Assembly (NCBI RefSeq): GCF_003334355.1
Contig: NZ_QOWP01000001.1
Origin: Escherichia coli
GTDB lineage: Bacteria; Pseudomonadota; Gammaproteobacteria; Enterobacterales; Enterobacteriaceae
Reading direction: 5' to 3' (one strand)
DNA: 64,000 nucleotides
Shown: one piece after another, positions 31,268-56,508 of the stretch
Numbering within the stretch: position 1 is the stretch's first letter
Layout: every line of letters begins with the position of its first letter
Notes under the pieces: generated by a model
The model's database searches: none
What the model was told of the DNA's origin: nothing
What the model saw: the letters and a program-made list of their open reading frames with translations, nothing else
Program-made: the position numbers and the translations under genes

Positions 31268-31345
31268 AAAAAAATACCGACCCGGGTACAAGTCCCAGGT
31301 CAGCTACAATTCACATTTTGATAGTCATTTTACCCTGAAGTTCCC
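31268..31345 (-). ncRNA. graL: greA leader attenuator region (GraL-type short transcripts), approximate
   Basis: On the minus strand a hairpin gacctggg-acttgta-cccgggtc is followed by ggtattttttt, i.e. an intrinsic terminator inside the greA 5' leader; start not mapped. Confidence 0.4.
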
Positions 31346-31420
31346 GAAGGGTCATCGTTTACTTTATAGGGCGTTGCGCCGTAGTATGACGGCTCGATTC
31401 CAGGTTGTTAGCGCGAGATT

Positions 31421-49573: not shown

Positions 49574-50428
49574 ATGGTACTGATGATCGTCAGCGGACGT
49601 TCAGGTTCAGGTAAATCTGTCGCCCTGCGTGCGCTGGAAGATATGGGTTTTTACTGCGTGGATAACCTTCCCGTAGTGTTGTTACCCGATCTGGCTCGAA
49701 CCCTGGCCGATCGCGAGATTTCTGCCGCCGTCAGCATTGATGTTCGTAATATGCCGGAGTCACCAGAAATATTCGAACAGGCGATGAGTAACCTGCCTGA
49801 CGCTTTCTCACCGCAACTACTGTTCCTGGATGCCGACCGTAATACCTTAATTCGTCGTTACAGTGACACGCGCCGACTGCATCCGCTTTCCAGCAAAAAC
49901 CTGTCGCTGGAAAGTGCTATCGACAAAGAAAGCGATCTGCTGGAGCCTCTGCGTTCGCGAGCGGATCTGATTGTCGATACCTCAGAAATGTCCGTTCACG
50001 AGCTGGCTGAAATGCTGCGTACCCGTCTGCTGGGTAAACGTGAACGCGAACTGACAATGGTCTTTGAGTCTTTCGGCTTCAAACACGGTATCCCTATCGA
50101 TGCAGATTACGTCTTTGACGTGCGCTTCTTGCCGAACCCGCACTGGGATCCGAAACTGCGTCCAATGACAGGTCTTGATAAGCCTGTCGCCGCGTTCCTC
50201 GACCGCCACACAGAAGTACACAATTTTATCTACCAGACGCGAAGCTATCTTGAGCTATGGTTACCTATGCTGGAAACCAACAACCGTAGCTACCTGACGG
50301 TCGCCATTGGTTGTACCGGCGGGAAGCACCGTTCGGTGTATATTGCAGAGCAACTGGCTGACTACTTCCGCTCGCGCGGTAAAAACGTCCAGTCACGCCA
50401 TCGTACGCTGGAAAAACGTAAACCATGA
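49574..50428 (+). CDS. rapZ: RNase adapter protein RapZ (YhbJ), 284 aa
   Basis: ORF track 49574..50428; ATG verified; Walker A GRSGSGKS. Confidence 0.95.
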
Positions 50429-50697
50429 CCGTCAAGCAAACTGTTGAAATCACAAACAAGCTGGGCATGCATGCCCGGCCTGCAATGAAGCTGTTTGAAT
50501 TAATGCAGGGTTTTGACGCTGAAGTGCTGTTACGTAATGACGAAGGCACCGAGGCTGAAGCCAACAGCGTTATTGCGCTGCTGATGTTGGATTCTGCCAA
50601 AGGACGGCAGATTGAAGTTGAAGCGACCGGTCCACAAGAAGAGGAAGCACTGGCCGCCGTTATCGCCCTCTTTAACTCTGGTTTTGATGAAGATTAA
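50425..50697 (+). CDS. ptsO: Phosphocarrier protein NPr, 90 aa
   Basis: ORF track 50425..50697; HPr-like fold, ATG overlaps rapZ stop. Confidence 0.95.
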
Positions 50698-50842
50698 TCT
50701 TCATCACTTTGACATTCAAATCCCTTCAAGCTCCCCCGGCAATAAGAAAAGCGCGTACTGAAATCGTTCTCAATCAACGTCATTTGTACATTTTGTGCGC
50801 TTTTCACTTTCAGAAGAACCTTAAGAAAACCTTAAGAAGCAT

Positions 50843-50859
50843 TGTTTAGGTTTTGTTTA
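50843..50859 (+). promoter_or_regulatory. Candidate PhoP box upstream of yrbL
   Basis: TGTTTA-GGTTT-TGTTTA direct hexamer repeat with 5-nt spacer, about 50 bp upstream of the yrbL ATG; yrbL is a known PhoP-activated gene. Confidence 0.55.
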
Positions 50860-50909
50860 AGTTAATCGACCATACTGGAGATCGTCAGAAAATATTTCCA
50901 GGAGATGGC

Positions 50910-51542
50910 ATGATTCGCTTATCTGAACAAAGTCCCCTGGGCACCGGAAGACATCGGAAATGTTATGCGCATCCGGAAGATGCCCAACGCTGTATCAAGA
51001 TTGTCTACCATCGTGGCGATGGTGGCGATAAAGAGATCCGCCGTGAGTTAAAGTATTACGCGCATCTTGGTCGTCGGTTAAAAGACTGGAGTGGAATACC
51101 GCGCTATCACGGTACCGTTGAGACGGATTGCGGAACCGGTTATGTCTACGATGTGATTGCCGATTTCGACGGCAAGCCCTCCATTACGCTGACCGAATTT
51201 GCTGAACAATGCCGTTACGAAGAAGACGTTGCACAACTGCGCCAGTTACTGAAACAGCTGAAGCGTTATTTGCAGGATAACCGTATCGTGACGATGTCGC
51301 TGAAGCCGCAGAATATCCTCTGTCATCGCATCAGTGAGTCAGAGGTTATCCCCGTCGTCTGCGACAACATTGGTGAAAGCACATTGATTCCACTGGCAAC
51401 CTGGTCGAAGTGGTGTTGTCTGCGTAAGCAAGAGCGGTTATGGAAACGATTTATCGCCCAACCGGCGCTGGCTATTGCCCTGCAGAAAGATCTGCAACCT
51501 CGTGAGAGCAAAACGCTGGCCCTCACTTCGCGCGAAGCTTAA
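50910..51542 (+). CDS. yrbL: PhoP-regulated protein YrbL (kinase-like fold), 210 aa
   Basis: ORF track 50853..51542; trimmed to ATG giving [24 protein letters not shown]. Confidence 0.85.
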
Positions 51543-52267
51543 TCCAGCTGGTGTTGTTGCATAAACGGCTCACCGCCTAACTGATACATCTGCCGTAAAA
51601 TCCACGCCTGACGGCTATGCACGTAGCCCGATGGCGCGGAGACTTTGAAACGACGTGGATTAGGTAATACAGCTGCCAGTAATGCAGCTTCCGATCGGGT
51701 AAGTTTGCTCGCGGGTTTGTGGAAATAACGTTGTGCCGCAGCTTCGACGCCAAACACACCGTCGCCAAATTCGGCGATATTCAGGTAAACCGTCAGGATA
51801 CGCTTTTTGCTCCAGACCGTTTCTATCCCCAGCGTTAATCCAGCTTCCAGCCCTTTTCGTACCCAGCTACGCCCATCCCATAAAAAGAGATTTTTGGCTG
51901 TCTGCTGAGAAATCGTTGATGCACCGCGAATACGGTTTTCATTGCGCTCGTTGTGCGCCAGGGCTTTCTCAATGGAAGCGACATCAAAGCCCCAGTGCTC
52001 AGGAAATTTCTGATCTTCTGCGGCAATCACCGCCAGTCCCATCCATGGCGAGATTTGATCCATACTGACCCAGTCAGAATGTGCCACGTAACGAAAATTG
52101 CCATGCAGCCAGGCGCTGACCTGTCGCTCGACCATTACCGCTGAGAAGGGAACAGGCGCAACGCTAAACAACGCGATGCCCCCGCCCCAGAAAACGGCGA
52201 GGACAACCATTAACCGCAAAAGAAAACGGCGAACGAAACTAAACACCGTTAAGCGGCTTTTACTCAT
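51539..52267 (-). CDS. mtgA: Monofunctional biosynthetic peptidoglycan transglycosylase, 242 aa
   Basis: ORF track 51539..52267; ATG verified; N-terminal membrane anchor and GT51 transglycosylase motifs. Confidence 0.95.
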
Positions 52268-52917
52268 TCAGCCAGAACCAGCACGCGGGATACCAGCTTA
52301 TCAATGCCGCTCGCCGCTTCTGCAATGTTCTGCGCCAGCATATATGCTGGGGTGGTGACAATCTTATTGTCTTCATCAACCACGATATCATCGACAGGAC
52401 AGGGCACATGCTCCGCGCCCATCTCTTCCAGCACTTCTGCGGTATCGATATCAGTACCGATGGTCAAACGCAGCGGGAAATCGAAAATTTTCGGCAGCAT
52501 CGCCGGGGCAATACACATAAAACCAAGCGGTTTTCCGGCCTGATGCATCGCTTGTGCCAGCGCCTTTAATTCACGGTCAACGGTGCATTCGCTACCAAGA
52601 CTGGCAAAATTGCTTAAATTCTTCGCCGCGCCAAACCCCCCCGGCACAATCAACGCATCCAGTTCAGCGGCATCGGCCTGGGCCAGAGGACGGATTTCAC
52701 CGCGCGTTATTCGTGCCGCTTCAATCAGCACATTGCGCGTTTCCGTCATCGCCTCGCCAGTTAAATGGTTGATAACATCAACCTGCTGCTTATCCGGTGC
52801 AAAGCAGACCGCCTGCGCACCGCTGCGTGAAATAGCTAACAACGTCAACACCGCTTCATGAATTTCAGAACCGTCATAGACGCCGCATCCGCTCAGAATT
52901 ACGCCAATTTTCTTCAT
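52264..52917 (-). CDS. elbB: DJ-1/PfpI-like protein ElbB (YhbL), 217 aa
   Basis: ORF track 52264..52926; second in-frame ATG gives [16 protein letters not shown]; stop overlaps mtgA start. Confidence 0.92.
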
Positions 52918-53034
52918 TGTGATCATCCTTTCGCAATTGACTGAAACACATTAATTTTTTTAATAAAAATGGTACGCATCACACATTTAACTGATTCATG
53001 TAACAAATCATTTAAGTTTTGCTATCTTAACTGC

Positions 53035-53155
53035 GTGCGGCCTGAAAAACAGTGCTGTGCCCTTGTAACTCATCATAATAATTTACGGCGCAGCCAAGTT
53101 TTCCCTGGTGTTGGCGCAGTATTCGCGCACCCCGGTCTAGCCGGGGTCATTTTTT
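53035..53155 (+). ncRNA. arcZ: ArcZ sRNA (RyhA/SraH)
   Basis: gtgcggcctgaaaaacagtgctgtgcccttgtaactcatcataataatttacggcgcagccaag...gcgcaccccggtctagccggggtcatttttt matches recalled ArcZ sequence; terminal hairpin plus U-run overlaps the arcB stop on the opposite strand. Confidence 0.85.
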
Positions 53156-55483
53156 AGTGGCTTTTGCCACCCACGCTTTCAGCACTTCTACGTCGTGACG
53201 CCACTCTTCTTTCATCTCTTCAATCCATTCACCGACGTTATCTTCCCAGGCCGGAAGGTCAGGAGACTGAATTTGCTGACCCAGCTGTTGCAGATGGCGT
53301 AACCCCACTGACCCCGCCGCACCTTTAATTTTATGTCCTTCCTCAACAATGCCTTTTTTATCCTGCGCCGTCAGATTCGACTCCAGCACGCTGACATAGC
53401 CCGGCATCATCTTCTCAAACACCGCTAACCCGTCGGTGATCAGCTTCGGTCCTACAAGTTCGAGATACTGTTCCAGCATGGGAATATCGAGCAATGCTTC
53501 TGATTTACTGTTCTCTTCTGTCGTCACCGTACTCTCCTCATCATCCAGGGTATCCCAGAATTTCTTGATCATCGCGGTTAGCGCCGGAACAGAAAGCGGC
53601 TTACTCAGCACATCATCCATTCCAGCATTGAGGTACTCTTGTTTGTCTTTCAGCACGTTAGCGGTTAAGGCCACCAGCGGCGGTAAATCCTCGCGCGGAT
53701 AACGTTTCGTCAGTTCACGAGAGATATCCAGCCCGGTCATATCTGGCAACTGAATATCCAGCAACACCAGGTCGTATTCGCCCGGTTTAAACATCTCCAG
53801 CGCCGCCTTGCCGGTCATGGCGACATCAACGCTGTTACCTAATTTTTCCAGCACAGAACGCGCAACAATCACGTTCAGTTCAATGTCTTCCACCAGCAGC
53901 ACATTCAGCGCCGGTAAAGGCATATCGTCTTCATCAAACGCATCATCGACCTCTTCTGCTACCGACGGTGCGTGGATCGTCAACGTAAAGGTTGAACCTT
54001 TGCCCTGTTCGCTGGTAACCGTAATATCGCCGCCCATATTTTTCGCCAGACGACGAGAAACGGCCAGACCAATACCGGTGCCGGTGGCAGGTTTACCGCC
54101 ATGACTGTCTTTCACCTGGTAATACATGGCGAAAATTTTATCCAGCTCATCCTGCGGAATGCCGATACCAGAGTCTTCCACTTCAAAATGCAGCATATCG
54201 CCTTCATCGTAGCGCACGCGCACGGTAACCTGGCCTTGCTGGGTGAATTTGACGGCGTTACTGATGAGGTTCCACAGGATCTGCCGTAAACGCGTCCCGT
54301 CGGTAATGACCTGATGCGGTAATGGCAGCGTCGGCTCCAGGTTAAAGCGCAATCCTTTTTGTTGCGCCTGCAATGCGGAGAGATTTTCCAGATCGGCAAG
54401 GAAGCTGGTGAAATCAACCGGTTGATTATCAAGCTGGACCTTGCGCCGTTCCATCTTATCCATGTCGATAATATCGTTAAAGATATTCCCCAGCGTGACG
54501 GCCGAAACATGGATGGTCTTGAGATATTTTTCCTGCTCGGCGGTGAGTTCGGTATCCAGCAGAATGCGGCTCAGACCGACGATACCGTTCAGCGGTGTAC
54601 GCAATTCGTGACTGATGGTGGAGATAAACGTCGTTTTGTCGCGGCTGGCCCGTTCAAGCGCATCCTGATACCGCTTACGCTCGGTAATGTCGCGACCAAA
54701 GCCCATCAAACCGTGACGTTTACCCACGCGGTCGTAGTACGGCACTTTACGGATTTCAAAGCAGGCTTTGCGCCCGTCCGGGTAATCCAGCCACTGTTCA
54801 TAGGTCAGTGACACATTATGACGGAACACTTTTTCATCGGTTTCAATGACTTTTGCGGCGGCTTCCGGTGAGTAAACATCAGCAGGTTTCAGGTGAATCA
54901 GTTGTTTTTCGCTTTTTCCGGTCAGCAGCTCCATCGCGCGGTTACAGCCGGAAAACTCTTTATCTTCGTTACGATAAAAAACCAGGTCGGGTGAAGCATC
55001 AAGGAAGGAACGTAAGAATGAGGATTGCTGCTCGAGCTGAATTTGTGTCTCTTCGCGCTCTTTGATTTCAATTTTCAGTTGGCCGAAGGTTTCCTGCAGT
55101 TCTGCTTCCGCTTTTTCACGAACGGCAATTTCCTGATTTAGCTGGGCAATATTATCTTTTAACTGAACGTTGAGGCTCAAATCGCGCTCGCGCATCTCCT
55201 CCAGTTTTTGCACCAGCCGTGACAGACGTTGTCGTGACTCCTCCAGTTGCTCGACGACCACCGATAGAAAGTAGACCGCCCACGGCGTAATCAGCAAACC
55301 AAAGAAGATAGAACGAATAACATCAATGCTTTCGACCTGACCATGCAGCACCATGGTTACCGCCATTTGTACCACAATGGCAAGAACGACGAGGGCCAGC
55401 GCCAGCAACATTGAGAAGCGCACCAGACCTAACTTCATCATCAGGTCAACATAATACTGCGCCAGCAGACGAATTTGCTTCAT
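53147..55483 (-). CDS. arcB: Aerobic respiration control sensor kinase ArcB, 778 aa
   Basis: ORF track 53147..55504; trimmed to ATG giving MKQIRLLAQYYVDLMMKLG; HisKA H-box SHELRTPLN, receiver and HPt domains. Confidence 0.97.
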   Translation of the reverse strand: MKQIRLLAQYYVDLMMKLGLVRFSMLLALALVVLAIVVQMAVTMVLHGQVESIDVIRSIFFGLLITPWAVYFLSVVVEQLEESRQRLSRLVQKLEEMRERDLSLNVQLKDNIAQLNQEIAVREKAEAELQETFGQLKIEIKEREETQIQLEQQSSFLRSFLDASPDLVFYRNEDKEFSGCNRAMELLTGKSEKQLIHLKPADVYSPEAAAKVIETDEKVFRHNVSLTYEQWLDYPDGRKACFEIRKVPYYDRVGKRHGLMGFGRDITERKRYQDALERASRDKTTFISTISHELRTPLNGIVGLSRILLDTELTAEQEKYLKTIHVSAVTLGNIFNDIIDMDKMERRKVQLDNQPVDFTSFLADLENLSALQAQQKGLRFNLEPTLPLPHQVITDGTRLRQILWNLISNAVKFTQQGQVTVRVRYDEGDMLHFEVEDSGIGIPQDELDKIFAMYYQVKDSHGGKPATGTGIGLAVSRRLAKNMGGDITVTSEQGKGSTFTLTIHAPSVAEEVDDAFDEDDMPLPALNVLLVEDIELNVIVARSVLEKLGNSVDVAMTGKAALEMFKPGEYDLVLLDIQLPDMTGLDISRELTKRYPREDLPPLVALTANVLKDKQEYLNAGMDDVLSKPLSVPALTAMIKKFWDTLDDEESTVTTEENSKSEALLDIPMLEQYLELVGPKLITDGLAVFEKMMPGYVSVLESNLTAQDKKGIVEEGHKIKGAAGSVGLRHLQQLGQQIQSPDLPAWEDNVGEWIEEMKEEWRHDVEVLKAWVAKATKK

Positions 55484-55578
55484 TAGGGAATTCCTTCGCG
55501 ACAACCTCCCCCAATAATACCCAATTCTGACAGTTACGTTATAAATTGTGTGAGAAATGCGGAATTCCCCTCAACGAC

Positions 55579-56508
55579 CTACTCCGTTGGAGGTAGCCAC
55601 GGACGTCCCAGCGCCGATCCCTGTACGCCATGTTCATTCAGATAGCGATCCAGCTCGACCATTCCCGTCCATCGATTTTCGCACCACAGCGGAGCAAGCA
55701 GCGTCGGGCGACGGGCGCTGGCGGAAATGCGGTGGTAGATCACTTCCGGTGGCGTATGGCGAATCATTTCTCCGGCAGTGAGCGTGTAATCCTCCAGTTC
55801 AATACCGTTCAAACGCCCCGCTTCCCAGGCTTTCGCCATAATGCTGCCTTTCACAATATGCAGCGGATGCAGCTTTATGCCGTCCACGCCGGTTTCAACC
55901 ACTCGCTCCAGCGTTTGCAAACATTCAGCCTGCCCTTCGCCAGGCAGGCCGACAATTAAGTGGGAACACACCTTCAGCCCGCGCTGACGTGCCAGCTGGG
56001 TTGTACGCTGATAACAGGCAAAATCATGGCCGCGGTTGATGCGATGCAGTGTTTTGTCGTGGGCGGTTTGTAGCCCCAGCTCCAGCCACACTTCGTAACC
56101 CTGGTCCTTATATTCGCAAAGCAGATCCAGCACCGCATCCGGCACGCAGTCCGGGCGGGTACCAACACACAAACCGACAATATTGGCCTGGCTCACCGCC
56201 TGCTGATACATAGAACGCAGCACCTGAACTTCCGCAAAGGTGCTGGTATACGCCTGAAAGTAGGCCAGATAGCGTTTAGCACGGTTAACTAAATTCGCCT
56301 GGTGCGCCAGTTGCTCGGCAATGGAACGATGCTGCTGCGCTTCATCGGCAAACGAGGCCACATTACAGAATGTGCAGCCACCACGCCCGATGGTACCGTC
56401 ACGGTTAGGGCAGCTAAAACCGCCGTGCAGCGTCAGCTTATGCACCTTTTGCCCATAACGACGGGTGAGATCACCACCAAACATATTGACTAATTTCTGT
56501 AACTGCAT
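55579..56508 (-). CDS. yhcC: Radical SAM protein YhcC (TIGR01212 family), 309 aa
   Basis: ORF track 55579..56541; trimmed to ATG giving MQLQKLVNMFGGDLTRRYG; cysteine-rich motif CPNRDGTIGRGGCTFC. Confidence 0.9.
   Translation of the reverse strand: MQLQKLVNMFGGDLTRRYGQKVHKLTLHGGFSCPNRDGTIGRGGCTFCNVASFADEAQQHRSIAEQLAHQANLVNRAKRYLAYFQAYTSTFAEVQVLRSMYQQAVSQANIVGLCVGTRPDCVPDAVLDLLCEYKDQGYEVWLELGLQTAHDKTLHRINRGHDFACYQRTTQLARQRGLKVCSHLIVGLPGEGQAECLQTLERVVETGVDGIKLHPLHIVKGSIMAKAWEAGRLNGIELEDYTLTAGEMIRHTPPEVIYHRISASARRPTLLAPLWCENRWTGMVELDRYLNEHGVQGSALGRPWLPPTE

Follow-up and report, generated by a model that had tools for sequence, protein, structure and literature searches.

Canonical arcZ in an Escherichia coli genome: a small RNA gene whose terminator shares base pairs with the end of convergent arcB

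In bidirectional intrinsic terminators, a single palindromic G+C hairpin separates convergent transcription units and, as read on the plus strand, is flanked by an A run and, opposite it, by a T run. RprA and MicL represent a different kind of described system, being small RNAs (sRNAs) that are matured by RNase E and Hfq in the study of Chao et al. 2017 (PMC5222698). ArcZ resembles these two in that its precursor is cut at an RN|WUU motif to release a 3' fragment carrying the seed and the Hfq-binding terminator (PMC5222698); it is unlike them in being a stand-alone gene whose terminator lies inside the end of a convergent protein gene. RNase E cuts ArcZ at GA|U+1U+2U+3 in a reaction that requires Hfq, and the resulting 56-nt 3' fragment is the only active form of the sRNA; U+2 and U+3 are essential for this cleavage and U+1 is not (PMC5222698). 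The seed, whose motif is given in PMC11331407, pairs in trans with rpoS, which is activated, and with numerous further mRNAs, including tpx, sdaC, flhDC, and mutS, and according to the literature the U-tail 3' end of ArcZ binds Hfq. Published work documents Hfq binding, maturation to about 56 nt, and regulation of rpoS, tpx, sdaC, and flhDC in both E. coli and Salmonella. The sRNA gene is repressed by phosphorylated ArcA under low oxygen, and its expression peaks in aerobic stationary phase (PMC11331407). The overlap of arcZ with arcB and the terminator have already been described, the overlap being given as “usually ten bases” (PMC11331407). In E. coli K-12 MG1655, the curated record lists arcZ as b4450, a noncoding RNA of 121 nt at 3350577-3350697.

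We analyzed a 64,000-nucleotide stretch of E. coli DNA, referred to here as the window, in which an earlier note had read an ArcZ sequence at 53035-53155 from the letters alone. When all Rfam families were scanned over positions 50000-56500, ArcZ (RF00081) was the sole match above gathering; it lies at 53035-53142 on the plus strand and scores 118.7 bits (gathering score, 66; E = 1.6e-27). The match covers the full model, positions 1-106, and all modeled pairs are standard. Aligned with the curated 121-nt arcZ of K-12, the plus-strand sequence at 53035-53155, which starts GTGCGGCCTGAAAAACAGTGCTGTGCCC and ends CACCCCGGTCTAGCCGGGGTCATTTTTT, is identical at 120 of 121 positions. Window and K-12 differ just once over the elbB-arcB spacer and the first part of the overlap, by a T for A at 53099, which makes a single substitution (A65U) within the 121 nt of the sRNA. 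The earlier note had named substantial divergence from the ArcZ reference as the outcome that would tell against its reading; the alignment gave none, and the sequence is not fully identical to K-12. The spacer containing arcZ was found in 5417 of 5426 complete E. coli genomes, many of them at 100%. Because of the Rfam E-value and this distribution, a chance match is excluded, and it follows from the K-12 alignment together with the spacer matches that 53035-53155 is a complete ArcZ unit in E. coli DNA. As to the remainder of the genomes, nine of the 5426 had no match to the arcZ region; one genome had it in two places, and one match was on a plasmid.

The gene order is elbB-arcZ-arcB, with arcZ convergent with arcB, and it is the same in K-12 and in the 116 loci that we analyzed. 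The ArcZ encoded here shares with b4450 its locus, its 121-nt length, its promoter region, its seed, its hairpins, its terminator, and a 9-nt overlap with arcB, and differs from it by A65U alone. All of the hallmarks of ArcZ that can be tested on sequence (model score, synteny, seed, RNase E motif, and terminator) were found, and we encountered no evidence against the identification. We conclude, with a probability of about 0.97, that 53035-53155 on the plus strand is the canonical E. coli arcZ, also called SraH or RyhA, in its usual place between elbB and arcB.

The curated K-12 record carries an arcZ feature, unlike the PGAP annotation of the E. coli RefSeq records at the matching locus. Most RefSeq genomes of E. 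coli thus systematically lack an annotation for this sRNA. Elsewhere in the window, Rfam matches to SraG, the S15 leader, naRNA4, the rimP leader, two tRNAs, and the greA leader were present (13685-13856, 14086-14200, 15713-15783, 20482-20582, 20674-20747, 24533-24616, and 31269-31390), which is the content expected of the pnp-to-arcB region of E. coli.

A putative arcZ promoter can be placed at 53000-53028 on the plus strand by reference to the K-12 5' end, 6 nt upstream of it. It comprises a -35-like GTAACA (53000-53005), a 17-bp spacer, and an extended -10 element, TGcTATCTT (53020-53028). A scan of 52850-53300 for the sigma-70 consensus reported no promoter; the putative promoter was missed because it agrees with the consensus at no more than 8 of 12 positions. 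In sequence, this region does not differ from the K-12 promoter region. We also searched 52927-53060 for an ArcA direct repeat, TGTTA-N6-TGTTA, allowing up to two mismatches; this simple pattern gave no hit, against a mean of 0.3 in shuffled sequence. Control of arcZ by ArcA in this genome would therefore rest on the literature and on the identity of the promoter region to that of K-12.

Within the transcript, stem-loop 1 (GCUGUGCC / GGCGCAGC) occupies 53054-53094 and has eight pairs, all of them standard in the Rfam consensus structure; it belongs to the 5' portion that processing cuts away. As defined in PMC5222698, the RNase E maturation site falls at 53098-53102 and reads GU|UUU here and GA|UUU in K-12 and Salmonella, placing the predicted cut between 53099 and 53100. 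The RN|WUU motif is kept, with U at +2 and +3 and with U instead of A at -1. The processed, active 56-nt ArcZ would then extend from 53100 to 53155, a placement taken from the literature and accompanied by our folding. Its seed, CCCUGGUGUUGGCGCA, is exact at 53103-53118, just 3' of the processing site. The fragment is also predicted to contain a small hairpin, GCGC-AGUAUUC-GCGC, at 53114-53128.

The terminator scan identified a hairpin, ACCCCGGTCTAGCCGGGGT, at 53129-53147 on the plus strand, with eight pairs, six of them G-C, followed by CATTTTTT. Written as a stem-loop, it reads ACCCCGGU-CUA-GCCGGGGU, and folded alone it has a predicted energy of -14.0 kcal/mol. Beyond the hairpin the plus strand continues UCAUUUUUU, in which CA precedes six U residues at 53150-53155. 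A Rho-independent terminator with a 3' U tail, the architecture of an Hfq-dependent sRNA, is thus present, and Hfq would bind it according to the literature.

On the minus strand, the arcB coding sequence runs from an ATG at 55483 to 53147 and encodes 778 amino acids plus the stop, by translation and by the RefSeq annotation at a 100% identical locus. The product is identical to K-12 ArcB at 776 of 778 residues, differing by V196I and Q646L. Neither substitution lies close to the C-terminal overlap. Together with the promoter region, the full-length ArcB bears out the description of the locus as intact. The protein ends ...WVAKATKK* (...EVLKAWVAKATKK*).

By the ORF list and the translation, the minus-strand arcB stop codon, TGA (the complement of TCA), occupies 53149-53147, with the terminator stem on one side of it and the U tract on the other. 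The earlier note had put the stop at 53147 on the opposite strand, as we find it, and had described the terminator hairpin as overlapping the last arcB codons and the stop codon. That holds for the U tail, the CA, and the base of the stem, and the stop codon does lie within the terminator. It does not hold for the G+C body of the stem (53130-53146), which is outside the arcB coding sequence in its 3' untranslated region; the stop codon sits between the stem and the T run, not inside the stem. The A of the stop codon is the partner-strand base of the U at 53147 that closes the stem, so that arcB is overlapped solely by this closing A-U pair, the CA, and the U tract. The T6 run at 53150-53155 is read on both strands: the same six base pairs supply the U tail of ArcZ on the plus strand and, on the minus strand, the two Lys codons (AAA AAA) with which ArcB ends. 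The overlap between arcZ (to 53155) and the arcB coding sequence (from 53147) is 9 nt, and it is likewise 9 nt in K-12, where arcZ ends at 3350697 and the arcB coding sequence starts at 3350689. This convergent arrangement is already known, as the earlier note had said.

We compared arcZ-arcB loci by searching bacterial genomes, one for each species, for exact matches to the 19-mer of the ArcZ seed, TTCCCTGGTGTTGGCGCAG, which returned at least 120 stretches. In each locus, arcB was located by tblastn with the ArcB C terminus from the window and extended in frame to its stop codon. Among the matches listed, this gave 116 loci, made up of about 113-114 loci from other species' genomes and those of E. 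coli (K-12, a second E. coli locus, and the window). Seed 19-mer matches outside the Enterobacterales (L018, L056, L066, and L081) were rejected as chance occurrences, having neither a hairpin and T run nor arcB. In 94 of the 116 loci among the matches listed, arcB has its stop codon, TGA or TAA, immediately between stem and T run, and ArcB ends in Lys-Lys; these come from Escherichia, Salmonella, Citrobacter, Enterobacter, Klebsiella, Yersinia, Rahnella, Erwinia, Edwardsiella, Proteus, Providencia, Photorhabdus, and Xenorhabdus, and their computed overlap is 9-11 nt. In the other 22 of the 116 listed loci, arcB stops within or beyond the T run and the ArcZ terminator is unchanged. These exceptions are mostly from Pantoea and Mixta, with others from Morganella, Hafnia, Pluralibacter, Superficieibacter, and Chimaeribacter. 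In Pectobacterium carotovorum, arcZ and arcB are reported not to overlap at all (PMC11331407). Given these 22 loci and P. carotovorum, the overlap with the coding sequence itself is dispensable.

A stem-T(C/T)A-T5-9 string was present in all 115 parsed loci among the matches listed, as TCA in 84 and TTA in 31. The string is also kept in the 22 loci (within L003-L122) whose arcB stop is elsewhere. This suggests either that the sRNA itself constrains the CA or UA that joins its stem to its U tail, or that these bases are a relic of the ancestral state. The 115 loci contain 40 distinct hairpins, in which the inner pairs alternate among G-C, A-T, and G-T; pair levels 5 and 6 are 100% standard, and compensatory G-C/A-T changes occur at levels 5-7. 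These compensatory changes support the predicted terminator hairpin. On the protein side, the residues before Lys-Lys vary freely among genera (AKATKK, AEAEKK, ADAGKK, VESRKK, and others). Because these residues vary while the stem-T(C/T)A-T run is invariant, we infer that ArcB owes its Lys-Lys end largely to the sRNA terminator, which would be the constrained element. What our analysis adds in detail is this conservation of the stop-codon slot and of Lys-Lys, the compensatory changes in the stem, and the frequency of the A65U allele.

One ArcZ-like element was set aside from the count of arcZ-arcB loci because it is located away from arcB. In Mixta sp. Marseille-Q2659, a second, truncated element at 1712-1790 on the plus strand of the matched stretch (L040) has an exact copy of the ArcZ seed together with a short hairpin and a GCGGG-U8 terminator of its own, and it begins some 40 nt downstream of the end of an IS1-type transposase gene. 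It scores 30.1 bits with the Rfam ArcZ model, which is under gathering, and the same genome also carries a normal arcZ-arcB locus (L041). The element may be a seed-sharing paralogue that is transcribed directly in short form.

The A65U substitution, at nucleotide 65 of ArcZ and position 53099 of the window, is the sole difference from K-12 within arcZ. Counted with 60-mers centered on the polymorphism, it was present in 74 of the 5417 genomes, about 1.4% of complete E. coli genomes, among them ATCC 8739 and ST540 strains; the K-12 allele was present in 5307. Across the 116 loci among the matches listed, the dinucleotide at -2/-1 is GA in 45, GT in 16, AG in 13, AA in 9, and other combinations in the rest. 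Provided that the cut has not moved, the mature 56-nt part is the same as in K-12. The substitution shifts the predicted minimum free energy by 1.1 kcal/mol, with modest local re-pairing around nucleotides 61-72.

Three other readings of the locus bear on these results. A 62-amino-acid ORF at 52969-53157 on the plus strand appears in the mechanical ORF list, so that the region could encode a small protein instead of, or beside, the sRNA. We rejected this candidate and give it almost no credence: neither the K-12 nor the PGAP records annotate it, the region is matched in full by an RNA covariance model, and what is conserved from genus to genus is mainly the 3' seed and the stems with compensatory changes, next to a highly variable 5' flank, a pattern like that of an RNA and not of a reading frame. 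For the ArcZ transcript itself, we consider A65U to be probably neutral, because the -1 base varies among genera, where A, U, G, and C all occur naturally, because the RN|WUU consensus is kept, and because the shift of 1.1 kcal/mol in predicted folding is small. The opposing view is that the RNase E cut has moved by one nucleotide, to AG|UUUU, or that its efficiency is altered, with changed levels of mature ArcZ in a minority lineage. The rarity of the allele, its location exactly at -1 of the mapped site, and the somewhat different predicted pairing near nucleotides 61-72 would fit such an effect. The substitution also extends the U run from three to four, and RNase E often cuts one nucleotide upstream or downstream, with U runs reinforcing recognition (PMC5222698). 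Natural single-base changes in arcZ of Dickeya abolish processing (PMC11331407); those variants, however, sit inside the processed part, unlike A65U. In the published consensus, -1 is N, an unconstrained position (PMC11331407), and even a change of U+1 to G had little effect in vitro (PMC5222698). The critical U+2 and U+3 and the seed are unaltered by A65U. We therefore regard an effect on processing as improbable. Still more doubtful, in our estimate, is the further proposal that U65 is a natural variant like those of Dickeya, altering the site or efficiency of ArcZ processing and thereby shifting the ArcZ/RpoS/ArcB set-point in the lineage that carries it.

The remaining reading concerns arcB. 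At the DNA level, ArcZ and arcB overlap at their 3' ends by 9 nt, and the true extent of the overlap is set by where the arcB mRNA has its 3' end. The hairpin could be a shared, bidirectional terminator for ArcZ and the arcB mRNA, in which case the transcripts would have no more in common than the hairpin and a few bases, and the arrangement would reflect economy of space and not antisense regulation. The locus does resemble bidirectional terminators in that a palindromic G+C hairpin separates its two convergent transcription units; being almost perfectly palindromic, the stem is predicted to form on the arcB transcript as well, right after the stop codon. The terminator scan of the minus strand over 52850-53300 returned no terminator-like site, which leaves no other such site between arcB and elbB, and the stem and stop arrangement is widely conserved, as expected of a shared structural element. 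The resemblance ends at the flanks. A U tract follows the hairpin on the plus strand only; from the arcB side the run precedes the hairpin (AAAAAAUGA-hairpin-UGCGCG), so that the defining U tract is missing. In that direction the hairpin is followed by UGCGCGAAUAC instead, and four or more U residues in a row first occur about 100 nt beyond it, across from the 5' end of ArcZ. Two reviews, citing Mandin and Gottesman (2010), report mutual repression of ArcZ and arcB and attribute it to cis-antisense pairing of the arcB mRNA with ArcZ (PMC4152358, PMC11331407), which needs arcB transcription to read through the hairpin. A literature search for arcZ-arcB together with “bidirectional terminator” or Term-seq found nothing specific. 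Taken together, these points make a shared terminator possible but unlikely. With no U run following the hairpin on the minus strand and no terminator-like site down to elbB, it is plausible that arcB transcription reads through arcZ. The amount of antisense pairing depends on the point at which arcB transcripts end. At 53035-53060 on the minus strand, the antisense of stem-loop 1 (GCUGCGCC...GGCACAGC) is followed by ACUGUUUUU, with five U residues, about 100 nt past the arcB stop codon. This could be a weak candidate for the arcB terminator; if arcB transcripts ended there, the arcB 3' untranslated region would be antisense to almost all of ArcZ.

Taking the locus as canonical arcZ, the literature suggests how the module would work. 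Transcription of the gene would take place in aerobic growth and stationary phase, with phosphorylated ArcA as its repressor. Hfq would bind the primary transcript, RNase E would cut it at the site corresponding to GA|UUU, and the seed of the 56-nt 3' fragment would then pair in trans to activate rpoS and to act on further mRNAs such as tpx, sdaC, flhDC, and mutS. With arcB convergent, any of its transcripts extending past the stop codon would be antisense to ArcZ. ArcZ and the arcB mRNA would repress one another, closing a feedback loop with ArcA and ArcB.

The arcZ-arcB module, which leads from oxygen sensing to RpoS, is intact in this genome, a result of little importance beyond annotation. 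As a natural variant, the U65 allele would allow the N in the RN|WUU rule to be tested at little cost. In most Enterobacterales, the same six base pairs double as the U tail of an sRNA and the Lys-Lys end of ArcB, a case in which an RNA signal can fix the end of a protein.
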